DNA of 64,000 bases from an uncultured virus (IMG/VR IMGVR_UViG_3300042297_000490). Its lineage: Duplodnaviria > Heunggongvirae > Uroviricota > Caudoviricetes. The stretch lies in IMG/VR virus record IMGVR_UViG_3300042297_000490; one strand, given 5' to 3'. Position numbers and translations under genes: made by a program. The notes beneath the pieces are model-generated. The model saw only the letters and a program-made list of their open reading frames with translations. It searched no databases and was not told the origin of the DNA. Positions within the stretch are counted from its first letter, which is position 1; every line of letters begins with the position of its first letter. This document shows positions 1-52,222 of this stretch, piece after piece.

Positions 1-4
1 TGAT

Positions 5-1651
5 ATGTCTGAAATATTTGATGAAAAAGATACTGCTACAAAAATAAAAGAAAAAATTATAGCATTGTCTGGTGAAAAATTAGCAATGCCAATGCAAATT
101 TTAGATGTGCCAAATAAAAATATAGCAGTTTCAAGTTGGAATAAATTATTGTTAGAATACTTTGGGTTTAATAACTACGGTGATCATCCTGTATTAGTTG
201 CAAAAGCAATTAATGCTGTGGCTGGTGGATTGTCAATTGCTGAATCTAAAAATAGAAAAGATAATCATTGGGTTAAAGATGAGTCAATGGCAAACAATTC
301 TACTAAAGCAATTGCTACTCCTTCTGAATCAAATCCTAATTATGTTGCACGTTCTTCTACAAGAAACTACATTGATGTTATCAATCAAACAAACAAAAAA
401 GCTTTTGATAATAAATATAAAAGCACCGATAGCGTTTGGATTTTTGGTGCAGGATTGTTTAAAAGTGCATACGAAGGATTAACTGATTTGAAAGGATATA
501 CTGATATAGTTACCGCTGATTTCAAAAAAAATTACGAACCTAAAATTACAAAAGCAATTGAAGCTGGTGTTAAAACATTTAATGTAGGTTCTGCAAATGG
601 TATTGATGAAATGGCTTTAAAGTTTCTTGAAGAAAAAGGATATACAAAAGTTGTTCGTTATTCTCCTTTAGGAAAATACTATGAGGTTGTAAAAAGTTTA
701 GATGGTATTAGTTCTCCAATGTACGATGTTACTCTTGGTGTTAAATCTGGACGTAAGATTGGAATTGACAACTACATTTATCACATAACAGGCCTTAATT
801 TATTTAAAGGAATGTCTGAAAAAGATATTTCTGAAAAAGGATTTAAAATGGTAGATGCAGAATCAAAAAAATATTTTGCTGAAAATCCTACATACAAAAA
901 TGGATTTTCAATTGCACTATCTGATTTTGAAAGAGCTGCTATTAATATTGGATCTTCTGTTACAGATTCTTTTATTGAACAATACTTAATGCAGGTTGAA
1001 ATACCATTTGCTAAAAAATATGTTGAAAGTATAACACAAGTAAATACTCAAAAAGTTTATGAACCAAAAATTTTATCGCCTACTTTAAAAATTATGAAAA
1101 TGGCAGATTTAAGAGAAGCCCACAACAAAGGTGATATTTTATATACAATGCGTGTGTCAAAAGCACAAGCTGCATCTGCGCAATTTGGATTTAAAGGTTT
1201 AAGTGAAAATAAACATTTTGGCAATCCTTTTACTGGTTCTAATGTAGAAGGTCAAATTAAAATGAAAAGTGTTGATGTAGCTTCAATGGCGTATGAAGAA
1301 TGGTTGGATGGTCAAGATGTATTTAAAGATAAATTTGATAACGTAATTAGTCTTGAGTATGCAAAAGAAAGACGTGACTGGATTAATAGCACAATAGATA
1401 GATTGAAAGCTAAAGAAACAAAAACAGTTCTTGGTTACAGTAATTCTCAAAATGAAGCATTTAATCATGCATCTATTTTAGATGAAAGAATCAATGGTGT
1501 TAAAGCAGATAAACCAAAAACTTTAACTGATAATGCTCAAAAATTAGTTGAAGAATTCATTGATTTAAACACTAACATTCCATTAGAAGAATTTAAAGTA
1601 TTACCTTTGAAAGAAATGAAACGAGTAATTAACGATATAAAAGAATGTTAA
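5..1651 (+). CDS. C-terminal part of a large virion/cargo polyvalent protein, with SLOG/YspA-like and DUF4326-like segments; frame probably continues upstream of the window
   Basis: Frame open from position 2; VGSANGIDEMA resembles the GxAxGxD SLOG motif; HFGNPF...AYEEWL resembles DUF4326; abuts a 2024-aa ORF. Confidence 0.5.
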   Translation: MSEIFDEKDTATKIKEKIIALSGEKLAMPMQILDVPNKNIAVSSWNKLLLEYFGFNNYGDHPVLVAKAINAVAGGLSIAESKNRKDNHWVKDESMANNSTKAIATPSESNPNYVARSSTRNYIDVINQTNKKAFDNKYKSTDSVWIFGAGLFKSAYEGLTDLKGYTDIVTADFKKNYEPKITKAIEAGVKTFNVGSANGIDEMALKFLEEKGYTKVVRYSPLGKYYEVVKSLDGISSPMYDVTLGVKSGRKIGIDNYIYHITGLNLFKGMSEKDISEKGFKMVDAESKKYFAENPTYKNGFSIALSDFERAAINIGSSVTDSFIEQYLMQVEIPFAKKYVESITQVNTQKVYEPKILSPTLKIMKMADLREAHNKGDILYTMRVSKAQAASAQFGFKGLSENKHFGNPFTGSNVEGQIKMKSVDVASMAYEEWLDGQDVFKDKFDNVISLEYAKERRDWINSTIDRLKAKETKTVLGYSNSQNEAFNHASILDERINGVKADKPKTLTDNAQKLVEEFIDLNTNIPLEEFKVLPLKEMKRVINDIKEC

Positions 1652-4600: not shown

Positions 4601-7600
4601 AAAGAACTATTAGAAAAACTTGATCAAACAAATACTAAAATTGCAGCCCTTAAAGGTATTATTGATTCAACTATATTGTTTGAAGAAGTTTCAAATATAG
4701 TTAAACCAACTGTAAATGAATCAGGTATTTATGAAGGTACACGTTTATCATTAGAGGAACAACAAAAAATAACTGACTTGAATAAACAAATTCAAGATGG
4801 TAAAAAATTGTTTATTACTAAAAGTGGTTTAAGTAAGCATCAGTATTTAGATTATGTTAGGTTAAGTAATAGAAAAAATCTTAAACCTCATGAAAAATTA
4901 AGACTGGAAGCTTTTAAATTAATTCTACGCACTAAACTTCAAGGACTTGAGGTTAATGATGAAGACTTACTTGAAGTTGATCAAATTGACAATGATTTAC
5001 GTGAAATGTCATATTCAAGAAGCACAGAAGATTATAAAAATATGTGGTTTGATTTCATGTATAAAAATTCTGATGTTTATGATGCTGTTTACAATGCTGT
5101 AAAAAAAACATATAAGCATAGTGACTTGTATAACAATCCTGTTTTATCAGAAGACATGGTTGATATATTGTTATCTGATTTAGATTTAATCGATGAATTA
5201 AAAGAGTTATCACCTGAATTTAAAACATGGTTTGAAGCAAATCATTTTGCTGATGAAAAAGTTGTTTATGCATTAGATCCAGCAATTGGGTATCAAGTTC
5301 CAAAAGGTGTTGTTAGTATATGGACAAAATCTACAGTATGGAATTTTTCAGGACCTTACGATGTAGATAAGTATTACAACACTAAAATTATGAATCATGA
5401 TTTATTTCCTAATGGTACATTGGAAGTAAATGGTGAACCACGTGTTCCAAATAAAGCATATAAATCAAAGATTGTAAAAAGCGATTATGTTACACCTGAA
5501 ATTGAAAGAGATGAACTTCAAAATGGTCAATTGATTCTTGCAAATAAAGATTCAAAAGGACAATGGTTACCAAAGACTGTTAATGAAGGTGCAATAGGAA
5601 CTAACTTTATTAATGATGAATATCAAGAAATGTTACGTTCTAAACCAGAATTATTTGATGCATTGATGTACTTAAAAAATACATACTTGGATAATCAAAT
5701 TGGATTAGATTCATCACAAACAAACGGACTTGCTTTTCCTAAAGAAAAAATTCATGGAACTATAGAAAATGTTACTACAAAAGGATTTTTTGAAAGAAAG
5801 CGTCTAGGTATAATAAGAGCTTTTAGTAAAAGCAATACTGATGATTTTGATAGTGATCAATATCGTAAAGCTTCTGTAGGATATGATTCAAATGCATTAG
5901 CAAACACAATGACCAGACCGATTACTGGTAATTATGAAATGCCTTTAGCTGAACAAAGTAGAAATATTGTTTCTATTATGGGTAGATGGTTGCATTCAGT
6001 TGAAACATATAAAGTTGCTCGTGATATTAACCCTGTTGTACAAATGTTACAGGATACAATTAAAAATCTTGGTGCTGATCCAGATCTTATTAAATTAAAA
6101 CAATCATTTGAAACATTAAATATGGCTAAACCTACACTTTCAGCTGCTGAAAGTGGTCGATTGAAGAATATTAATAAAATGATTGATAAACATATTGATG
6201 GTGTTCAAGTTGTAATGCCTGATGGTTTTGATGGTAGATATGGTACTTATGCATTGCGAATTACGCAATTTACAAGTAAAGCATTAAGTAAACGATTCTT
6301 TAGTTATAATGTGTATAGTGGTGTAAAAAACTACGCCAGTGGTGAAATTATGTTAGCGGCAACATCGGCAGAAGGTAAAGTTTTAAATCCAAATGATTTA
6401 CGTGTTACAAAAAGAATGGCTATGGCTGCTTCTAATAAAATTGTATCAGAATCATGGACTAAAAAACAAAAAGATCCAATTATACAATTGATAACAGTTA
6501 TGGATGCTATTCCAGACTTTGCTAAAAAACGTGCAGGTCATAACGGAGGTACAACATTTATGCAGTCTATTTTTAAAGGTAATCAACGATATGCTATAAG
6601 AAAATATCTTGGTGACATGGTTCCGTTGCATCAATTTTTTGCAATTTTAAATCATAATAAGTTTGAATTAAATGGTAAACAAACTACTTTGTTTAAAGCA
6701 ATACAGTTAGATGCTCAAGGGCGTGTTGTAACAATGCCAAATGTTCCAGTTGAATATTCTATTTCTTATTCGGATGATAACAAAATCATACTTGGTTCTA
6801 AATTAAATCAGTTAATAGATCTTCATCAAAATACTTTAACCAAAACTATTGGTGCAGCAAATGATTTGAATGCTCCTGATATTTATAGGAATCTTATGGG
6901 AAAAATGGGATTATTTTTAATTAAATTTTTTCCAAACTTATTAAGAGATAGAATTACATACGGTAAAGTTAAATTTAAACATAAAGAAATTTTAGGAAAA
7001 AAAGTAGCAGTAGGCGTTCGATTTACACCAAGAAATAATGTTGCATCTGGTACAAGAGAATTAGGTTCTTATGTTGCACTGTTAGAGTCCGTTGGAGAAC
7101 TTATTAGAACAAGAGGTAAGCATTTATCGTATGAAAACTATACAGGGCTTCTAAAGATTGCTATTGGTATTTCAATTGAAATTGCATTGTATCTTGTTCA
7201 AAAAAACATGAGATTTAAACTCAACAACGATGATGATGATGAATCTAAAGCTTTTCTTTTTGATGAAGAAAAAGAAGGGATGTTTAAATGGATGGCTGCA
7301 TCAACAAGTGTTCCGCAAGCACCTAAATTTATTACAGATATTACAGGTCCTATTGTAGATGAACAATATACCGATGCAAGTGGGCGTGAGTTTGATGCTA
7401 CTAATTTTTTTAAAATACAACTTTTACGAACAATTGTTGGTGTAAGAAAAGAAACAAGTGCTTTTTATCCAATGCCTATGATGAACCAAGGTGTTAATAT
7501 GTCTATGATGAAAGGTGTTTTTTCAACAGCAAATCCATTAAGTGATATACTTAACGGATTTGACATTGCTTTAGAAGGTGAAGTTTATGAAAAAGATGCC

Positions 7601-22212: not shown

Positions 22213-23466
22213 TTAATTAAGTTTAATTACTTTACCTGATTCTTTTAGGTGGTCTGCATCGCCACTGATAGTTGATAATACCCATAACATGTTTTTTACA
22301 GGGTTATCTGGTAGCGGTGCTTCACCATCTGTTAGATAGATGAGGGTAGAGAAACGATTACGGTGCTGATGATAGTAATTGACTACCGGATTAAAGTCAG
22401 TACCACCACGTTGTTTGATGATGAGTTCTTTTTTAGGACTATACTTGATTGGCTCTTGCATTTGTGTGTCAGCGAATATCAATGTGAAATCGTGACCTGA
22501 TTTGTACATGTGCTTAATCTCTCCAAGAAATTCCATTATTTCTGGTGTTGATACTGAAGCCGATGAATCTATACCGATGAGGATATGCGAATGCTCGTGT
22601 ATGCGGATACCAAAATCATGTTCGAATCGTTTGGACTTCTTGCGTTTTGTTTTGCGTACAGATGTCTTAATTGAGTTCCCAATAAATCTACGTAGGTATG
22701 CTTTCCAATTGAACTTTGGTGGTTCAATGTTTAGTAATGCTCCTATACGTTCTTCTATCTCACTTGGATATGTACCTCTTGATTTCTTTACTTGTTCTAT
22801 AGCATCACTAAGGATTGTTGCAAGTTGTCTATCTACAAGTTTTTGTTCTGCTTCTGATAGGTCTGTTGCTTCATCCCAATCATGTTCAGGTGTATTCATT
22901 GGTTTACCATTCATATCAACTTGTCCTGGATTATTTCCTTTAGGACCAGTTTGACTTGGATCACCTTGACCATCTTGCTGTTGATTTTTTGCATCGGCCA
23001 TAGCCTGCATAATCTTTTGCATAGTTGAGTCACCACCTTCTTGCTGTTGATTTAATTTTTCGTAATACTTATTACTACCTTCATGAGGTTTTAAATCATA
23101 GTGTGCTGGGTATTTATCAATCGTACATCCACCAACAGGAAGATATTGTTCATCAATCTTTTGATTAATCTCAATGTCCTTTGCTTGATTTGCAAGGTCG
23201 TGATTTTTCAAATGTTTGTAATCACTTAAATGGAAAAATGCTATGTGCATTAATTCGTGAATGATTAATCCCTTGCGTTCTTTTTCATTCAATGTATTCC
23301 AAAATTCAGGATTGATATATAGTTTGTAGTTAATACCTTGCAAACCAACTCCTGCTGTCTTTACCTTTGTGCTACTCCATTCTTTCTGTAGGTTTAATAA
23401 AAGTAATCCGTAGAACGGTTGTTCTAGCATTATCTGTTTACATACCTTCGTTAAACTCTGTTGCAT
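22213..23466 (-). CDS. DUF2201-type metallopeptidase + vWA domain protein
   Basis: HELMH, IDSSAS (MIDAS-like), GGTDF, LTDGE. Confidence 0.88.
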   Translation of the reverse strand: MQQSLTKVCKQIMLEQPFYGLLLLNLQKEWSSTKVKTAGVGLQGINYKLYINPEFWNTLNEKERKGLIIHELMHIAFFHLSDYKHLKNHDLANQAKDIEINQKIDEQYLPVGGCTIDKYPAHYDLKPHEGSNKYYEKLNQQQEGGDSTMQKIMQAMADAKNQQQDGQGDPSQTGPKGNNPGQVDMNGKPMNTPEHDWDEATDLSEAEQKLVDRQLATILSDAIEQVKKSRGTYPSEIEERIGALLNIEPPKFNWKAYLRRFIGNSIKTSVRKTKRKKSKRFEHDFGIRIHEHSHILIGIDSSASVSTPEIMEFLGEIKHMYKSGHDFTLIFADTQMQEPIKYSPKKELIIKQRGGTDFNPVVNYYHQHRNRFSTLIYLTDGEAPLPDNPVKNMLWVLSTISGDADHLKESGKVIKLN

Positions 23467-43296: not shown

Positions 43297-43932
43297 TTAG
43301 CCATGTTGTTTATCGATTTGTTCTTGAAGAGCATCCCATATAGTACGCGGTCTATCAGGCTTATTCATTAATGCTTCAAGGTCGAATTCGTATTTGTATT
43401 CACGCATCTCTTCCAATGCACGTTCATAAAATTCTACCATTGATTGAGCCATTGCTATCTTACCTTTATACTGGCGTACCTTTTCTTCGATCATCATTGA
43501 TAAGAAGTTAACACCTTCATTTTCTTTTGATACACGAAGGATGCTCTTCTCTATTTTTTCTACGTGTTTGCTGTATTCTTTGATAGCATCGTTTGCTTTT
43601 TTTAATTCTTCACGTAGCACACCGATACCATGTCCAATCAAGTCGATGTTTAAATCATCAGACTTTTCTATCTCTGGTATTAGTACCTCTAATATGAATG
43701 AAGCAAACCTTTCTTGGAAGGCATCCTTTATTTCTGTTTCACCTGTTGTATCGTAGTGTTCACGTTTCTTATCGCTACCTAGTACATCATACGCTAACTG
43801 AATTGTTTGGAATACTTCCTTGTCACCACCTTTATCAGGATGATTTTCTTTAACACCTTTACGATGGGCTTTCTTTATTTGTTCCTTGGTCGCATCTTTG
43901 TTGACACCGAGAACATCATATAGGTTTTTCAT
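43297..43932 (-). CDS. J-domain (DnaJ-type) protein
   Basis: LYDVLGV...IKKAHRK...HPDKGG...AYDVL..KREHYD. Confidence 0.88.
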   Translation of the reverse strand: MKNLYDVLGVNKDATKEQIKKAHRKGVKENHPDKGGDKEVFQTIQLAYDVLGSDKKREHYDTTGETEIKDAFQERFASFILEVLIPEIEKSDDLNIDLIGHGIGVLREELKKANDAIKEYSKHVEKIEKSILRVSKENEGVNFLSMMIEEKVRQYKGKIAMAQSMVEFYERALEEMREYKYEFDLEALMNKPDRPRTIWDALQEQIDKQHG

Positions 43933-46900
43933 ATTCTTTCAGATAATAGTTAATAAAATTTCTTTGTGCTGTTTCTAAAGAGATGATGTTACTAAACTTA
44001 TTAGTAGCAAATAGATGTCCATGTCTATACCGAACGACAACATTTATTTCAGATAGTTTAATTGATAACTCCCCACTTTTTAATTTAACTTGAGCACATA
44101 CTGATTTAAACTCTAACGTGTATTTATCACGTATGAATTTTCTATGCGTCTTGTTTTGCACGATGACTTATTGTAAGATGTAATTGTGATTGTTCATCAA
44201 GTATGTCTAACAGTTCTCTGCTTGATGCACTACCATTATTGAAACGCATCATTAGTTCATTACTTTTTGCCATCATCCTTAACATATCGGTCTTATCTTT
44301 AAGATGACGTGACGACTCTTGCATATCATTACAAGATTGTTGTATCAAATTCTTTTTAGAGCGTTCAAATAATATCACGCCAATCATTAGTCCTAACGAT
44401 AGGCCTATAAAAAATATAATTAATTCCATTGTTTAAATTTTTAATTGTTAATACTATGGTGAGGATCGCCATTGATGTCATCTCCGGCATCCACCCATTA
44501 TTTCTTTAATCCTTTGATAATTTCTACTACTTTGTATGCTTCTTCTTCAGCAAATGTTATCATGTTTTCTTCATCGGAATCCCAACAACCATTGAACTTT
44601 TCACCGGATAGATGCATCATTTCGTGCATTACTAATCCCATTGTGTGAATGTCATCAGTACATCTTGACAGATTGATGAACACAAAGTTTTCGTTGTCTT
44701 TAGAATAATCGCCTGATAATTTTGGTACATAATTGCATAGGCCTGCTATGTATGCAATCTCTGTTGTATTTGAATGTGCTTCACATTCTGCTAACGATAG
44801 TCCATGCATTTCTGTTACATTAAAATGTGTAAACAAATCGCAAGGATTATAGGATAACAACAGTGTATAGAACGTAAACTTTATTGTAATCATTTTTCTT
44901 TTTTATTATTGTACCAAAACCAATCTTCTTTTATTTCTCTGTAGTCAACAGCGATGTCTGCTTTTAAACATGCTCTAAAGAATGTATTTTCGCTTGATTG
45001 TTCTTTGTTTATTATTGCAGTTGGAACTCCATCTACATCTACAAATTGAATCTTTTCACCATTGTTATTACTTGTTGGTGTTACATAACGAAGGAACCAT
45101 TCGTACATATCATTCCCATATTTTATAAGAATGAACTGTGTCTTACTGTGAATCATCAAAGCAAAATCAAGTTTGTGAACTATGTATTCACCACCGGTTC
45201 CACGATGTTCATTTATTCTACAACTTTTTTCATAGAATTTTAGATAGTCACGATCTAATTCTCGTTCCATTGTATTTTATTTTGATTGATAATCTTCACG
45301 TGGTATGATAAACATACATTTCATAACTCCATGTTGAATTAAATCCAATGGTAATAGAATGTGTGCATCAATAAGTGTGTTAAGTATTCCTTCGTTTTCG
45401 GAATAGTTTTTTACACAAACCATATCTTCTGATAAATAAATATCAGGCATATTGACTGAAGCAGTCATAAAGGGTTCACCTGTTTCTTGCTCGTATAATT
45501 GAATTGATGTGCGTTGATTGTTGTGATATTTTCCAAACACTATGTTGCAAGGAGTATCTGCGAATGTTATTGAATAGTTTTTCATTGTAATACTTTTTTG
45601 AGCCCTTCGGCAATTAAATCAATTACTTCTTGTCGTGTGTATTCTTTTTGAATTTTACCTTCACGAGAAATGTTTAGCATGTATTCTCTATACACAAAGG
45701 AACCAAGAGGATATGTTACATCGACTTTGGCTAATTTTACGTGTGTAATTTCAGTAGGTGGTGACGATGATAGTAAATGCCGAGCTTCCATTTGTCGCAA
45801 TAGAAACTCGGCTTTTTCACTATACTCTTGCATCATCTTCCAATTCACGTGTGAACCATTCTTGTAGTTCATCACGTAGTAGGTATTGACCGCTACGGTC
45901 TTGTCTATTACAAGCGTCAGTTAGTTTTTCAGGATTTGTGAATTTAACTATATACTCTAGCAACGTATAGTTGTATTCACAGATGTCGTTAAAGAGTACG
46001 TAGATACTTGAACCACGTAGTCCTAACTCTTCCATTTTGGATACCACGAACATACCAAGCATAAGGTTTTCCTTTACAAGATTACCTAATGCATGAGTGC
46101 ATCCTATATTACCCTCGGATATTTGAATGATTTTATCTCCTATTGTCATAATGCTTGTTTTTAAATTCTTCGATTTGAATTTCTAATTCTGTTGAATTGT
46201 ACGGAACGTACATTACATCAACCTCTGCGTTGTCATTGTATCTGATGTGTTTCTCTAGCAAGGTTATATATTCCATTGCTTGTTCTAGTTCCGCAGTAAC
46301 TGATTTCACTGGTTCTAAAGATAATTCTTCATCATCTAACAGTATAGAGATACATACTCTTAATCCTATTGTTATAGATAGTACAATGTAACATATCTCA
46401 AGGAGCCATTGTATCCAACTAAACTCGTATAGATTGACTGTACCACCTGCAAGTATAAGTTGCAATACAATTGATGAAAGGAATGCTATAGACGTTCCTG
46501 TGATGATTATTAGGGCTTTATTTATCGTTTTCATAAGTTTTAACTATATAATATTATTGTGGACTGATTTTGTTGGCATTGGGAATATGATGAATATGGT
46601 GTAGGGAATTCTTTCACATACACACAAAAACACCAATTATATTCGCAATCCTAGTTTAATTTCGATGAAATGGGTTTATTTGTCGACGAAATTGATTAAA
46701 ACCCCGTAATAAGGGTACTAAATGCGCTGTTTTCTTCGACGAATGATATAAAAACCACAGGTCAACCTCTGCTTTACAGTATGAGAGATTATGCCTGAAA
46801 CCCTGTGGTTTACGCTGAATGCTAATTGTGTGCGTGTAATGGAATTAGAATTGTATTAAATCTAAATAACCAAATGTGATCAAGAATGATACACCTATCT

Positions 46901-47039
46901 TAACCACGACACCACCATTATGGTAGTGATGTAGTAATGGTTCATTCTCTTTGTTAGCAAGTGCTTGTAGATTGTTGAACTCTGATTGTGTAACCAGTAC
47001 CTCTACATTGCTGTTCTCTTTTATTTGTTGTTCTGACAT
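43916..47039 (-). CDS. Cluster of small early-type genes (43916-44161, 44142-44429, 44498-44893 with HEMMH, 44890-45270, 45277-45585 DUF4313-like, 45582-45875, 45820-46149, 46133-46534 membrane, 46845-47039)
   Basis: Contiguous ORFs; GEPFMTASVN..VKNYSENEG resembles DUF4313. Confidence 0.55.
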
Positions 47040-47456
47040 TTTTTTATGGATTGTGGATTAATATTATGCGATGGAAAGATTACGATACATTGATGATAGT
47101 AACTTCCATTTAACTATGTACGTCACCTGCTTCATCGCAGATGAAGACTTGGGTATGCTTACTCTGCATACTATGGGATAGTAATTTCAGGGAGTTTGAA
47201 CCGGAGGTTCAGCCCTCGGAGAGCCGGAAATGTCGCTTGGCCCCACCGGCCTTAAAAACCTGGAAGGTTTTTAGCGAGGTGTCCATAGGTAAGCCTAGCC
47301 GGCAAGGAAATGGAATTTCCTTTTAAGGCGACACGAGAGCATCACACACTGCATACTATGGGATTGTAATTTAAACAAGAGAGCGTCACACGATGGGTGA
47401 GCAAGTGATAGTAATCTCTTACCAATCTCTTCTATCGTGGTTGACTTGTTACAAAA

Positions 47457-47492
47457 AAATATAGAGCAATCCCGAAGGACTGCTCTATATTT
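47457..47492 (-). terminator. Intrinsic terminator with cUUCGg loop
   Basis: Minus strand AAATATAGAGCAGTCC-TTCG-GGATTGCTCTATATTTTTTT directly after the stop at 47495. Confidence 0.8.
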
Positions 47493-47494
47493 AT

Positions 47495-48208
47495 TTACAG
47501 GTCATTAAGCATACTAAACAATGAACCTAACGCAGTAGCCTTGTCGTCTTTGTTTAATTTGGATATTACCTTAACAACATTCTCTGCCTTTTTATCGGCT
47601 TTCTTGCTGTCTTGAATTGCTTGGTAATCTTTTTGTTCCTGTAACTCAATACCTTGTTGGATTATTTCCGATGCCGATGCAAGTATTCTACCGTTGAAAG
47701 TTTTCGTGTACATTGTACCACGTTCTTGCATTGGTGTAATTGCTTGTTCTACAATCGGAAATAGCATTCCTCGAAAAGCCTCGTTAAAGTCTTTGATTTG
47801 AGAGTTGTACTCTTCTTCAAAAATGTTAACCAAATTTTGGTTAGTTAACGAAACTAAATGAGGACCAAAGTGGAACTGAAAGCGTAGTTTCTTGTTTGAA
47901 ACTGTGATTTTCTTGAATGCAAGCATTGCACAAGAAATATCAACGATAGCACCGCTTTCAGTAGTGGTATTGAATACTTTGTAATCAATACCTTGTAACC
48001 TTTCCGCAGGTTTAGCAACAACTTTCTCTTCGTTAGAAGAGGGTGTTGGTTCATCATCAGCATCATCTCCAAGTTTATCTTGGATTTCTTTTGCTAATGT
48101 TTTTAACTCGTCCAATTTCATTGGTGTTAATTGGTCCGTAGTTAATGGATTTGCTAACAAACCTGCATTGTTAGCAATAAAATCGATGTGTTCTTGTTTA
48201 GTTTTCAT
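47495..48208 (-). CDS. Hypothetical early protein
   Basis: ORF starting MKTKQEH, flanked by hairpin-box elements and a terminator. Confidence 0.7.
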   Translation of the reverse strand: MKTKQEHIDFIANNAGLLANPLTTDQLTPMKLDELKTLAKEIQDKLGDDADDEPTPSSNEEKVVAKPAERLQGIDYKVFNTTTESGAIVDISCAMLAFKKITVSNKKLRFQFHFGPHLVSLTNQNLVNIFEEEYNSQIKDFNEAFRGMLFPIVEQAITPMQERGTMYTKTFNGRILASASEIIQQGIELQEQKDYQAIQDSKKADKKAENVVKVISKLNKDDKATALGSLFSMLNDL

Positions 48209-48883
48209 AGCGAAAAATTTAAACATTAATAAAATAAAAGTCAATTGTTTTCGTACAATTGAAAATGAAAACGGTCTTAATTAAAATGCGAAGCAAATAT
48301 GCGAAGCAACCCGTTAGGGGAAAAGAAGACTTTAGTCTTCAGATTAAGATAACCGCAATGGGTGTGCGTGTAGCGAATTTATTCGCGTTATTAAGATAAC
48401 CGCTGTGAGCGTAAGGCGAACAGATGGGCGTGGGTGTCAGGTCGTGTACGTCAGGGTATCAGTGCGCAAACTTGTTTGCGTGGGCCAGTACTTCAGGGTA
48501 TGCGTGACATTACGAAGTAATGAGGAACCGCGAAGCGGTTACTATCATCATACAGCACACACCACACAAGGGTTATGATATACACACAACAACCAATACG
48601 ATAGTCACATGCTGATAGACGCTGAACATAATGATGTGACAAGGCTGATAGACACTGATGAACTATGGATGATAGACACTGCAGATCAAATGATATGACC
48701 AAGCTACACATCTCTGTGCAACCTGGTCTTTATATCTACCACCATTGCTGGTTACTACTACCTCTATGACGCACAGACTTCCTTGCCTGTTTGTCATTAT
48801 ATTTCTTAGCCTTTGCGTATCCGCAACTGCTATGTGTAGTAGCACATGATGTTACCACCATTGCTACTACCAATATCATTACT

Positions 48884-50343
48884 CTAATCATATCTGTATG
48901 TTTTAAAGAATACAACAGTACTCTTGATTGTTAATAAACTAATAGGCATACATATAAGGAAGCCTACTAAATGTTTAGCGCAGGTGAAACCTGAATACAC
49001 TATTCCTGTTGCCAACACTACGTGTATGATGCTAAGTATTGTAGCAATAAATGCTACAATGATTAATGTTCCAGCAATGATGTGAAACATTAACGAATTC
49101 ATTTTAACTTTCATAATAATAAATTTAAAATAGAGGGTGAGATACACCACCCTCTTTAGTGTTTATAGTTCAATTGAACCATTGTTCTTTTTATACCCTG
49201 CTCTATACTTTTGATATGGTGGTAACATTACCGCACCATACCAACATACAAAGGCGCATGCAGATGCACACGCACAGATAGTAGGCATGTGTTCCATACC
49301 TGCAAAGATTGCTGTTATCAATCCGAATAAAGCAACAGCAATTAATTTTAAATAAGTGTTTGACATTTTCATAATCGTTTAGTTTAAAATGGGGAGTGAG
49401 ATACACCACTCCCCTAAGTGTTTACTTATCTTATAAGTCCAGACAATTGTTTGTCTGTCTTATGTGTTATATAACTGCAATTAATGTATTCAGGTTCTTT
49501 AGAGTATGTGTAGTCATCTACACAACCGTTAAACATTCTTACTTCTTGGCCACACACCAAGAAGAACCCATTACCTTGTACTACTTTATAATCATTCATA
49601 ATCTTTTTTTTAAATATTAATAAATAAGACTTTAGTCTTAGGGTTAAGATAACAACAGTACATTAAAGATTGCAGATTGACGTGCTCTTCACACCTTGTT
49701 TCAATCTGCAATCCCTGTTGTTAGTTATTGTTCATTAGCATAACACGCAGGCATCTCGCCATAAGTCTTTTGGTATGCTATAATATATGCTTGCTTCTGT
49801 TGTTCTAACTTAGCAAGCATCTCTTCTTTAAACTGCTCACACATCTGTGTAACAGTTAATTCTTTTTTATCTTCCATCTTGTTTAGTTTTAATGGGTTAA
49901 TAATAAAATAGATGATGCTGTATTACATCATCTGTCAATCGCCTTCGGTATAATACACTACCTATCTTTTACCAAGCCAAAGAGTAGGCTATTATTTTTT
50001 TAAAGACTTTAGTCTTTAGAGTAAAATAAATACTAATAAGCGTGGCTGTTACACCACGCGTATTAGTTTAGAATGGAAGGTCATCACATTCTTCTTGTAC
50101 ACTTGGTTTTTGTACCATGGTCAAGCGGTGTAGCCTGTCATTCATTGCCATATAGTATGACATATTAAATGTAATGGCGTACATATTGCCATCGTCATCT
50201 ACATCGTGGTACTCATCCGCATATTCCGAACGTGTTACATGTATGGCATAGTGAAGTTCATCTAACTTCTCTTGACCAAATTCCACCAAGAATTGCAACT
50301 CTAATGCAGGCAATCCTTTCAATAATTCATTCCAGTTACTCAT
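48884..50343 (-). CDS. Five small early genes (48884-49114 membrane, 49163-49372 membrane, 49426-49599, 49725-49877, 50068-50343)
   Basis: ATG starts with A/T-rich leaders; two translated by hand (57 and 50 aa); separated by hairpins. Confidence 0.6.
49124..49424. repeat. Two 42-bp intergenic hairpin repeats (49124-49165, 49383-49424)
   Basis: TTTAAAAT-8-bp stem-AGATACAC-stem-TWAGTGTTTA, with three compensatory base-pair changes. Confidence 0.8.
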
Positions 50344-50741
50344 AATATATATTTTTAAAAGACTTTAGTCTTTGGAGTAAGATAATTACATATATATGTA
50401 GGTCGGTGGCTCCGCCCTGGTCCTCGGTAGGATGAGAGTCAGGCTGTGCCCTGATTGGGTGTGGTGTGTTGGATGTACTGATGCACACTGTGTGCGGTGG
50501 TGTTCTTCCGCCAGGAAGAATTGTAGGTATGGTACTTGAATTTATTCAAGCTGCTAGCAAACATAGGGGGTACACCCAAGCTACGAAGTAGCCGGGGGTT
50601 TTTATATAGAAGGACCCCCACAAACACTTACATCTCCGATTTTCAAATTACCCAAAATTTTTTTTGGAATTACCCTCTGGAATATACTAATATAGAGCAT
50701 TTTTCTAACTGGTTGATTGCTACAGAATTGTAATGATTACT

Positions 50742-50846
50742 TGCACCCAAAAAGGTGCAGACTCTCTTCTACAACCTAATGAATACGTTGATGCCTGCAC
50801 CAAAAAAGGTGCAAATAAATTTCATCATTGCACCAAAAAAGGTGCA
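50742..50846. repeat. Three 18-bp palindromes TGCACC-N6-GGTGCA (50742-50759, 50796-50813, 50829-50846)
   Basis: Read directly; 17-18 of 18 positions identical. Confidence 0.9.
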
Positions 50847-50864
50847 CAGCATACAAAAATTGAT

Positions 50865-50872
50865 TATATTTG
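50865..50872 (+). promoter_or_regulatory. Bacteroidota-type -7 promoter element
   Basis: TATATTTG 4 nt before the ATG at 50877. Confidence 0.6.
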
Positions 50873-50876
50873 TACC

Positions 50877-51365
50877 ATGATTAAACCAATAGTTAATAAG
50901 GTAAAGAGCAATGGAACACTGGTGGATACTTCTACTGGCGAGGTTCTTCCTGAAGGAACTACAGTGAATATTATCAATGAAGACTTGGTGATTGTACACA
51001 GTGATGAATATGTAGTTATCGATTCCAAAGCATTAATATATATCCTGGAACATTTCACGCCTGTTGATTATGGGCGCATCTTGAAGATGGCCAATATGAC
51101 CAATGGTAGTTACAATATTTTGTATGTTGATCGCAAGGTTCCTCACACAGATACGACATTGATGGAAGAGTTGAAGTACACACGTAACAAGTATGCTGAT
51201 TTTATGAAGAGGTTGTACAAAGGTGGTGTTGTGTATTATATTAATGGTGTGAAAGATGGTGTAGAATTTAAACACATAATGTTGAATCCACATCTTGCAC
51301 GCAAACGCAAGACTATTGCAAAAGATTGCTTGATTTATTTTGATGAATTAGTTGAAAAAAGATAA
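50877..51365 (+). CDS. RepL-like (plasmid replication/HTH) protein
   Basis: VDTSTGEV N-terminus, HTH-like core, MLNPHLARK C-terminus; the upstream extension in the ORF track merely translates the palindromes. Confidence 0.6.
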   Translation: MIKPIVNKVKSNGTLVDTSTGEVLPEGTTVNIINEDLVIVHSDEYVVIDSKALIYILEHFTPVDYGRILKMANMTNGSYNILYVDRKVPHTDTTLMEELKYTRNKYADFMKRLYKGGVVYYINGVKDGVEFKHIMLNPHLARKRKTIAKDCLIYFDELVEKR

Positions 51366-51367
51366 GC

Positions 51368-51804
51368 ATGAAAGTTCTTTATATTATAATCATTTTGATT
51401 ACAGGTTGTTCTTCCTATAGTAGTATCCATAACGAAGATCTGGTACGCAGAAGAAATGAAATGATGAAACAGGATTATAAGATGAAACGTGATATGCAAA
51501 AGGCAAGGGTGCGAGCAACACCAAAAAAGAAAAGAGTGAAACACGCTAAAGCAAAAAGAAAATTTATATGAGAATAATTACCATTTTTAAGAACCAGTGC
51601 AAAATGAAAATGTATATTTCATCTTGGTGTATGGGAATTGGACTTGACCAATTAACTCCAGTGTATAAAAAACATATTTCCGAACACATTGTTCGCAGGT
51701 ATGATAATCCAGAAGAGTTCAAACACAATGCAAATAAATCGGATGTAGTTCCTTTTTGCAAACAGGTATTCAATTATAACAAACGAGCTAAAAACAGACA
51801 TTGA
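51368..51804 (+). CDS. Small putative lipoprotein (51368-51571, LITGC) and hypothetical gene (51568-51804)
   Basis: Hydrophobic signal plus lipobox; ATGA overlap. Confidence 0.5.
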
Positions 51805-51805
51805 T

Positions 51806-52222
51806 ATGTGGATATACGAAGGTAAAGAATTTTTGGAAGAGCATGTTCCAGAAGATGGCTTTGGTTTCATTTATGAAATGGCGGCTATCGTTGATGGGAA
51901 ATCAGTTCGATACATTGGTAAAAAGAATTTTTTTGCAGATGTTAAAACAAAATTGGCAAAGAAAGATATGCCAACAGACAAGCGATTGAAGACCTATACA
52001 AGAAAGCGCAAGTTTACATATCAAAATTACTTTAGTAGTAATGAAGTATTGAAAACTGCACACAAAGATGGTGTGGTTATCAAACGTGAGATTGTACGCA
52101 TCTGCAAAAGCAAAACCGAATTGTCGTATTGGGAAACCAAGTTACAATTTGTATATGGCGTATTGGAGTCCGATGAATTTCTGAATGGAAACATACTCGG
52201 AAAGTTTTACAACATAAAGTAA
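51806..52222 (+). CDS. GIY-YIG-like nuclease
   Basis: GFIY...YIGKK...YFSS...E...NGNI. Confidence 0.65.
   Translation: MWIYEGKEFLEEHVPEDGFGFIYEMAAIVDGKSVRYIGKKNFFADVKTKLAKKDMPTDKRLKTYTRKRKFTYQNYFSSNEVLKTAHKDGVVIKREIVRICKSKTELSYWETKLQFVYGVLESDEFLNGNILGKFYNIK

Follow-up and report, generated by a model that had tools for sequence, protein, structure and literature searches.

Among the closest described systems, the promoters P1 to P3 of phage N4 are read by a giant virion RNA polymerase that prefers single-stranded DNA (ssDNA), and they are described as clustered copies heading the first genes, each a short inverted repeat whose free positions are only kept paired, with a compact DNA loop and an A-run at the downstream foot of the stem (PMC4496689; PMC13037366); the loop lies near -11, and the A-run serves as a ruler (PMC4496689). 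The same traits recur, on a presumed template strand, in a hairpin-plus-box element, five copies of which head the leftward arm in the genome of an uncultured crAss-like phage (IMG/VR record IMGVR_UViG_3300042297_000490), in a stretch of 64,000 nucleotides that is called the window throughout. A first-pass annotation of the letters had proposed this element as a structure-dependent promoter for the virion RNA polymerase, and we ask here how far the proposal carries. Its 5-7-bp stems keep their pairing, as in N4, on a strand that is the template if transcription fires leftward. The two systems differ, however, in that the N4 enzyme is a T7-like single-subunit polymerase whereas the one encoded here is a homologue of two-barrel gp66; in that N4 uses a purine triloop, C:G-closed and with a sheared G:A pair, whereas the loop here is TTTA in 5/5 copies (CTTG in relatives), C-GNA-G occurring only in other relatives; and in that the conserved bases of N4 run from -17 to +1, whereas here a conserved box occupies the positions 10-17 nt upstream of the loop, without a fixed +1 base (PMC4496689; PMC13037366). 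N4 promoters are further marked by mapped starts, extrusion driven by supercoiling, a role for gyrase, activation by the host SSB and a place at the end injected first. The element would thus appear to work like an N4 hairpin promoter without belonging to that class, from which enzyme family, loop and box position separate it.

A homologous virion polymerase with a DxDID catalytic loop is gp66 of phage phi14:2 (bioRxiv 2020.03.07.982082; 6VR4). According to that study, gp66 transcribes ssDNA well and double-stranded DNA (dsDNA) poorly and makes the rifampicin-resistant early RNA, an early/replication arm faces, as in the present phage, a structural arm ending in three giant genes, the replication module (the equivalent of the leftward arm here) belongs entirely to the early class, and later genes are transcribed by the host polymerase at -35/-10-like promoters (bioRxiv 2020.03.07.982082). 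Phi14:2 differs from the present phage in that its early transcripts have, in the words of that study, "no detectable common upstream motifs" (bioRxiv 2020.03.07.982082) and its early head is without these hairpins. The terminase encoded here is at most 26% identical to those of cultured Crassvirales. The phi14:2 study leaves the promoter of the crAss-type virion polymerase undefined (bioRxiv 2020.03.07.982082), and no description of one was found in the literature searched, subscription journals lying outside its scope.

Two further systems bear comparison. In Thermus phage P23-45, a phage-specific AT-rich motif before the pre-early genes is assigned to the injected two-barrel polymerase gp96, and a second motif class serves a second transcription stage; the accessible portion of that report makes no mention of a hairpin, and its assignment rests on mapped starts and ChIP-seq, whereas ours comes from sequence (bioRxiv 2022.12.01.518664). 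The G4 origin and ssiA of RSF1010 likewise place a stable DNA mini-hairpin beside a replication-initiator gene, but here five dispersed copies stand at fixed distances before start codons (PMC13037366). What the present locus adds is a TT tetraloop with a covarying closing pair, a box upstream of the hairpin, a readable and presumably cognate polymerase, and a second word, TTACTATCATC.

The phage and its virion RNA polymerase

In the window the replication arm runs leftward from ~50340 to 7700, and a second arm runs rightward from 50877. TerL has its best matches among crAss-like and Flavobacterium phages (23-26% identity), the portal and major head proteins have PHROG matches, and with terminase, portal and capsid all related to Crassvirales the window belongs to a crAss-like phage. 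A viral record that is 99.99% identical over 35.9 kb (G002) adds 55.3 kb, for ~119 kb in all, and includes a cluster of giant genes for proteins of 2,508, 3,988 and 2,024 amino acids (aa). The window itself holds the 3' end of the second of these (1..1651, + strand), the whole of which was read in G002. The 3,988-aa protein carries DYDID, aligned to DFDID of 6VR4, and a six-sequence profile made of this protein and five homologues (found in 5/19 records) matches 6VR4, the structure of phi14:2 gp66, with an E value of 1.9e-15; a phmmer search with the single, full-length polymerase sequence did not recover gp66 from the solved structures. The profile match brings the catalytic loops into register. 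The phage does carry a gene for a gp66-type two-barrel virion polymerase, and the context that the first-pass annotation had named for crAss-like phages thereby finds its gene.

Five copies of a hairpin and box

The element comprises a stem, a TTTA loop and a TAARATAA box, and its five copies lie on one strand (+) within 2.1 kb, all of them intergenic and upstream of leftward open reading frames (ORFs). The Watson-Crick stems of copies 1 to 5 measure 6, 5, 6, 7 and 6 bp, the loops start at 48331, 48378, 49631, 50008 and 50364, and the box begins exactly 10 nt past the loop in 5/5 copies, reading TAAGATAA in four and TAAAATAA at 50022 in copy 4. Copy 1 (48325..48352, +) pairs 48325-48330 with 48335-48340 around its loop at 48331-48334 and has its TAAGATAA box at 48345-48352, 104 nt from a leftward gene for which + is the template strand. 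Copy 2 (48373..48399, +; TTTA 48378-48381, box 48392-48399) stands in tandem with it, 47 nt apart and 151 nt from the same gene, and its 5-bp stem is rewritten to GCGAA/TTCGC with the pairing kept. Copy 3 (49625..49652, +; 6-bp stem, loop 49631-49634, box 49645-49652) lies 31 nt from the ATG of ORF 49426-49599, copy 4 (50001..50029, +; 7-bp stem, loop 50008-50011, box TAAAATAA at 50022-50029) 130 nt from that of ORF 49725-49877, and copy 5 (50358..50385, +; 6-bp stem, loop 50364-50367, box 50378-50385), the outermost, beside the strand switch and 20 nt from that of ORF 50068-50343. The outer stem pairs of copies 1, 3, 4 and 5 differ as well (G-C, T-A, A-T).

The description given at first pass, of four AAGAC copies and one with a swapped stem, sharing the TTTA loop, the 10-nt box distance, a common orientation and an intergenic place, was reproduced exactly in 5/5 copies; its statement that they lie upstream of small leftward genes stands for copies 3-5 and fails for copies 1 and 2, which precede a gene of 237-243 aa. 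A 22-letter AAGAC pattern allowed up to 3 mismatches matches the four AAGAC copies alone, against a mean of 0.02 and a largest count of 1 in 100 dinucleotide shuffles, and TTTA hairpins with stems of at least 5 bp, which average 2.35 per 64 kb in 40 order-3 Markov simulations, had a box at 10 nt in none of them; these controls rule out a chance origin of the array. There are no further copies in the rest of the window or in the 55.3 kb of G002 beyond it (~119 kb in total), and of the six TAARATAA boxes on + in the 6 kb leading up to the RepL-like gene, five are accompanied by the hairpin. Nearby, 48465-48480 (+) folds into a 6-bp stem with a CTTG loop, 93 nt from copy 2, and 50535-50550 into a hairpin with a TTTA loop; neither has a box, and the former may be a tandem copy that has decayed. 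At the equivalent place one relative (L009) has four tandem CTTG copies, two of them degenerate.

Rewritten stems with the pairing kept

Relatives were gathered by way of the first rightward (RepL-like) gene, which gave 64 loci; 51 were analysed, the other 13 being a near-self record, one duplicate and loci with less than ~900 nt of upstream DNA, and the 51 plus the window were dereplicated to 37 (36 others and the window). A search of these relatives for the motif, as the first-pass annotation had suggested, found the same architecture in other letters: 8/36, together with L011 (clustered under L023), have a stem-CTTG/TTTA-stem hairpin followed 10 nt behind the loop by a phage-specific box, TTAGAATA or TTAGACTC, TTATGT, or TTTAGGAT, ahead of their first leftward genes and with the stems rewritten. 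Other relatives vary the plan further, G003 having five GYC-GAA-GRC triloop hairpins with a purine box on the opposite side, and G008 and G010 CC-GNA-GG, then TTTACATT after 8 nt. Exact-pattern scans of viral contigs found the near-identical record, two matches with broken stems and nothing else. A degenerate scan in which the three inner pairs were left free gave 31 matches, five with full stems (three already known, two on new contigs of one sequence type) and 26 without; the degenerate pattern alone is unspecific and adds no new covariation.

A relaxed scan gave 44 rows, from which 24 elements (18 distinct cores) were kept, the 20 dropped rows being either repeats of one element in clustered loci or singletons with a weak stem whose box did not recur. 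When 17 elements are aligned without gaps, both-sided changes appear in 7/7 pairs, including the loop-closing T-A/C-G, 96% of cells are paired, and covariation stands at 0.91 against 0.04-0.12 for slid partners, although the rows of this alignment had been preselected for a stem; its only invariant columns are the TT of the loop and the first T of the box. Selection by loop and box over whole records, requiring no stem, is the fairer comparison, even if the boxes were picked after the elements had been seen: in the window plus G002 it returns seven matches, of which the five in the array have full stems and the two off-site have broken ones, and full stems are found in 2/2 matches in G004, 2/2 in G011, 2/2 in G012 and 2/3 in G014. 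An arm-shuffle control (88/90 pairs against a mean of 45.8) is circular for stem-chosen rows, and we do not count it as proof. The suggestion that a structure plus a box is recognized gains support from window and relatives alike, where the stems are rewritten and still pair, and the element is real, conserved and selected for its structure. A dsDNA operator palindrome is ruled out, since an operator would be expected to hold its arms constant and let its centre vary, whereas here the arms vary and the centre is fixed.

A DNA loop or an RNA signal

Strand preference was ranked for every 3- and 4-nt loop with a stem of at least 5 bp in 181 kb of head regions (the 37 dereplicated loci) and 203 kb of downstream control. 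The top of the ranking is taken by C-GAA-G, with 24 hairpins on + and 0 in reverse complement (control 0/0), CTTG, with 22 and 2 (control 1/1), and C-CGAA-G, with 15 and 0, all of them nearly absent from the control. The bias of the last is that of the UUCG terminators of leftward RNAs and thus provides an internal sign of the direction of transcription. Type II DNA loops arise from YYYR sequences, TTTA and CTTG among them, with C-G and T-T being most stabilising (PMC9975016), and GNA forms mini-hairpins that are specific to DNA and of which N4 makes use (PMC13037366; PMC4496689). Because TTTA, CTTG and GNA on + are all compact DNA loops, the loops fit a template-strand DNA hairpin better than an RNA hairpin, a reading that the strand counts for C-GAA-G and CTTG, though not for TTTA, support as well.

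The alternative at the RNA level, which we think quite improbable, would have box and stem-loop act on the leftward transcript, whether in RNA processing, as an operator of translation or in nut-like antitermination. The sense-strand order of box, 5 nt, hairpin, leader and AUG recalls that of lambdoid boxA-boxB, the RNA hairpins fold, and other intergenic hairpins with conserved loops lie nearby. Yet the RNA loops (UAAA, CAAG, UUC/UGC) have, to our knowledge, no known fold in common, while their DNA complements are all compact; the real terminators of the region show the opposite signature, with C-CGAA-G on + and UUCG in the transcript (15 vs 0); Rfam, searched over 44000-52000, gave one chance-level match (E 0.78) and none for the element; and upstream of the outermost copy the sole candidate for a promoter of such a transcript is a weak TATGTTTG at 50558-50565. 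In a lambdoid nut site, moreover, boxA is read by the host and conserved among phages and the boxB loop is GNRA-like, whereas here the box differs among relatives and the RNA loops are UAAA, CAAG or UUC.

Direction and distance to genes

Thirteen of the 24 elements lie 20-32 nt from a leftward ATG, as do 7% of 3,000 random positions in the same regions; another 10/24 are 87-151 nt from one, most of them ahead of the first large early gene, and one is at a contig end. In the window, copy 4 follows a terminator-like hairpin (50040..50059, -; z -5.4) set between ORF 50068-50343 and its own box, copy 3 follows a long hairpin (49669..49712, -; z -2.4; absent from the terminator-scan list) similarly placed behind ORF 49725-49877, and the last unit ends at a UUCG terminator-like hairpin (47457-47492) that closes gene 47495-48226. 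Such a layout is that of early cassettes each with a putative promoter and a terminator of its own.

Orientation and spacing fit leftward early promoters. The hexamer TAnnnT leaves room for a reading by the host polymerase, and a second and more conserved word, TTACTATCATC, is a rival for the promoter role. The Bacteroidota housekeeping consensus has TAnnTTTG, the form named in the first-pass annotation, at -7 and TTTG at -33. If host RNA polymerase, unaided or together with a factor from the phage, were to read the element as a leftward promoter, sense-strand TATCTT/TATTTT would be a -10-like hexamer and the inverted repeat a stem-loop at the 5' end of the RNA or a protein-binding palindrome at the start site; we regard this as unlikely, although TAnnnT is found on the sense strand of 5/5 window copies and 21/24 elements, the sense-strand RNA hairpins reach -4 to -6.6 kcal/mol, and the later genes of phi14:2 are reported to use that polymerase (bioRxiv 2020.03.07.982082). 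Against it, the hexamer shifts register among phages and is missing in some copies, no -35/-33 element is conserved beyond the box, and a palindromic operator should keep its arms. Exact TAnnTTTG is absent from the sense strand between 70 nt upstream and 40 nt downstream of the loop in 5/5 copies, which bears out the earlier remark that the elements do not resemble it; one-mismatch versions near 4/5 copies stand at unrelated offsets, and intergenic matches precede other genes (e.g. 50865, 58011, 18086). A scan for sigma-70 hexamer pairs at 16-18 nt spacing found no site over any copy on the sense (-) strand (0/5) and one on + (1/5; 9/12, copy 4).

Rightward sigma-type promoters, the box serving as a -10 hexamer on + for short antisense RNAs, would accord with three observations: the match over copy 4; a TAnnnT lying on + 10-12 nt behind the loop in 21/24 elements; and, in both the window and G004, a + oriented TTACTATCATC ~190-210 nt rightward of the first copy. 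This reading is very unlikely: a rightward ATG occurs within 18-60 nt of 1/24 elements, against 13/24 with a leftward ATG at 20-32 nt; the sigma-70 scan returned 27 sites where 17.3 were expected, so single matches mean little; and the + oriented word is present in just 2/9 genomes.

The reader of the element

Taken over all possible readers, the element is probably a promoter for leftward early transcription. We propose that each copy would be a phage-specific, immediate-early promoter whose template is the + strand, where the inverted repeat would fold into a compact DNA hairpin (a T-A or C-G pair closing TT, or C-GNA-G in other relatives). The injected gp66-type two-barrel polymerase, which prefers ssDNA, would read this hairpin together with the phage-specific box 10 nt further upstream, and transcription would begin ~10-12 nt downstream of the loop, leaving an A-rich leader of 10-20 nt. 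The letters establish the element with its repetition, pairing, spacing, orientation and conservation, as well as the polymerase gene; promoter role, extrusion of the hairpin and identity of the enzyme are our reading of the pattern, and the start position is borrowed from N4 geometry; for the full version, with a template-strand DNA hairpin and upstream box read by the injected polymerase, we see the case for and against as about evenly balanced.

Six genomes offer both element and polymerase for comparison. G003, with the closest RepL (86%) and terminase (85%), has the most distant polymerase (29% over 63% of its length) and a different architecture, whereas G014 and G008, with RepL at 66-69% and polymerase at 34-35% over 87-95%, keep hairpin then box. 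This is a single contrast, and it fits an element that co-varies with its putative enzyme.

Several observations weigh against the proposal. The relatives share ancestry and are not independent samples. The elements of G008 and G010 have only two closing pairs before a mismatch, and one G014 copy pairs 4/6; because of these the box may matter more than the stem. Twenty-eight of the 36 relatives are without the CTTG/TTTA-plus-box form, several having other hairpins and many less than 2.5 kb of flank; 15 representatives (L066, L068, L054, L057, L024, L050, L056, L044, L069, L055, L048, L049, L025, L026 and L052) have neither the tetraloop nor the triloop form on +, nine of these with less than 2.5 kb of flank. 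In phi14:2, compared over 100,000 of 100,418 bases, the template strand of the early head holds no C-GNA-G hairpin (stem at least 2) and no CTTG/TTTA hairpin (stem at least 4), so that gp66-type enzymes do not in general need the hairpin, which would be a clade-specific feature at best. The loop asymmetry of N4 promoters, compact on the template and open on the other strand, has a mixed counterpart here: strand bias is strong for C-GAA-G and CTTG, but TTTA hairpins alone show none in relatives (10 vs 7), nearest-neighbour energies differ by just 0.1-0.6 kcal/mol between strands, and the complementary YRRR loops can form type I loops (PMC9975016). There is no conserved +1 base, columns 8-14 nt downstream of the loop carrying at most 0.66 bit. 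G014 and G008 have different loops and boxes although their polymerase cores match at 61%; TAnnnT falls in the box in 21/24 elements on - and also in 21/24 on +; and TTACTATCATC, itself invariant, marks the early-sense strand along the whole replication arm.

The locus is attractive as a matched set: its polymerase gene can be read, nature supplies five variants of the template, one with a swapped stem, and relatives combine other loops with other boxes. If the proposal is true, hairpin promoters are not peculiar to the T7-like enzyme of N4, the TTTA/CTTG type II DNA loops acquire a biological use, and an orthogonal ssDNA-templated transcription system is at hand; if the promoter reading is false, what remains is a DNA-structure signal that is conserved, lacks a previous description and heads an early arm.

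A second word along the replication arm

The word TTACTATCATC has eight exact copies on the early-sense strand in ~119 kb, where 0.11 would be expected, and occurs once on +. The exact copy nearest the array lies at 47092..47102 (-), and six more follow further down the replication arm of the window (- strand positions 22378, 31971, 36213, 39586, 42494 and 45776); variants of it lie on the same strand at 47184, 47369 and 47414. It is present in 8/8 relatives, with 1-13 exact copies each, and 67/69 relaxed copies are on the early-sense strand; many directly follow the U-tract of a terminator or sit within a gene, ahead of the start of the next. It is unchanged where the polymerase core is 36-44% identical, whereas the hairpin-box differs from phage to phage. 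In the early arm of phi14:2, a 9-letter core of the word is not enriched. We regard TTACTATCATC as a candidate second promoter, or RNA signal with a conserved reader, and as a real rival for the role of virion-polymerase promoter. Its rare + orientation (48539..48549) directly follows a C-GAA-G hairpin: two such mini-hairpins are adjacent at 48508-48538 (+), the second fused to TTACTATCATC, and a similar fusion occurs at L009:7358-7377.

Were TTACTATCATC the real promoter of the virion polymerase, the hairpin-box would be a helper DNA signal, either a loading or melting site at the entering end or a single-strand priming signal beside the RepL origin. The excess of exact copies, their presence in 8/8 relatives and their strand favour this, as does the reported early expression of the whole phi14:2 replication module (bioRxiv 2020.03.07.982082); for the priming variant, DNA mini-hairpins are described as priming signals in G4 and RSF1010 (PMC13037366), and copy 5 has iteron-like repeats and a RepL-like gene 360-490 nt away. 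We nevertheless consider it rather doubtful. A word invariant over diverged polymerases would better fit a conserved reader such as a host factor, and a priming signal needs no fixed start-codon distance, yet the hairpin-box elements keep one.

A wider arrangement that takes in both signals is possible but speculative. A two-barrel (gp66/QDE-1-type) virion polymerase may have converged on the trick of N4, an extruded template-strand mini-hairpin whose loop is read as a shape (TT type II tetraloop or GNA triloop), with specificity coming from an upstream box that drifts with the enzyme, and with TTACTATCATC driving the next stage along the replication arm, in a two-tier promoter code of this crAss-like clade.

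Neighbouring genes and signals

Pfam and PHROG gave no match for the ORFs behind the elements, and the first three leftward ORFs, of 91 aa (50068..50343, -), 50 aa (49725..49877, -) and 57 aa (49426..49599, -), have no family match. The first large leftward gene (47495..48226, -; 237-243 aa) shares 37% identity over 185 residues with the L009 gene that follows the equivalent element; relatives hold genes of 168-255 aa at its place, with detectable homology in some only, and its N-terminal 45 residues resemble by eye a helix pair of the Rho-N/SAP type, which binds nucleic acid, although for this there was no database match. A 249-aa ORF has no relatives by tblastn among viral contigs and no Atlas match. 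No tRNA was found in the window.

Intergenic hairpins at 49132-49155, 49391-49414, 49910-49933 and 50040-50059, and at L008:3832-3876 and 4910-4954, keep their loops (GTGTATCT on the transcript strand, window and G003) while the stems are rewritten; they may be terminators or processing sites. A conserved multi-hairpin element at 47140-47370, between two variant copies of the TTACTATCATC word, swaps the loops GGA, GAA and CTTG on + among relatives, has an RNA fold on - with z -2.2 and drew no Rfam match; it would be structured DNA or a non-coding RNA.

At the strand switch, a G-run/C-run block (50566-50600; GGGGGTA...CCC...GGGGG) has counterparts at the same place in G003, G004, G008 and G014 and is possibly a genome end, packaging or origin signal. 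Beyond it lie three near-palindromic TGCACC-A/T-GGTGCA repeats (50742..50846, +; TGCACC-N6-GGTGCA), iteron-like and kept in relatives, and the first rightward gene (50877..51365, +), which served as the anchor for relatives and is preceded by a host-type TATATTTG at 50865-50872, 4 nt ahead of its ATG. Its RepL label is a weak lead from the Atlas (RepL on 11% of one look-alike cluster), and Pfam on the RepL-like alignment gave nothing useful; repeats and gene together are likely to form a replication origin with iterons.

Elsewhere in the early regions, tandem arrays of the 7-mer GCTCGAT occupy the early head in L009 (7395-7507) and in L021, which also has a duplicated early cassette of ~1.2 kb, and the early arm of the window includes a DnaJ-domain gene at 43297-43932 (Pfam E 5.5e-19).

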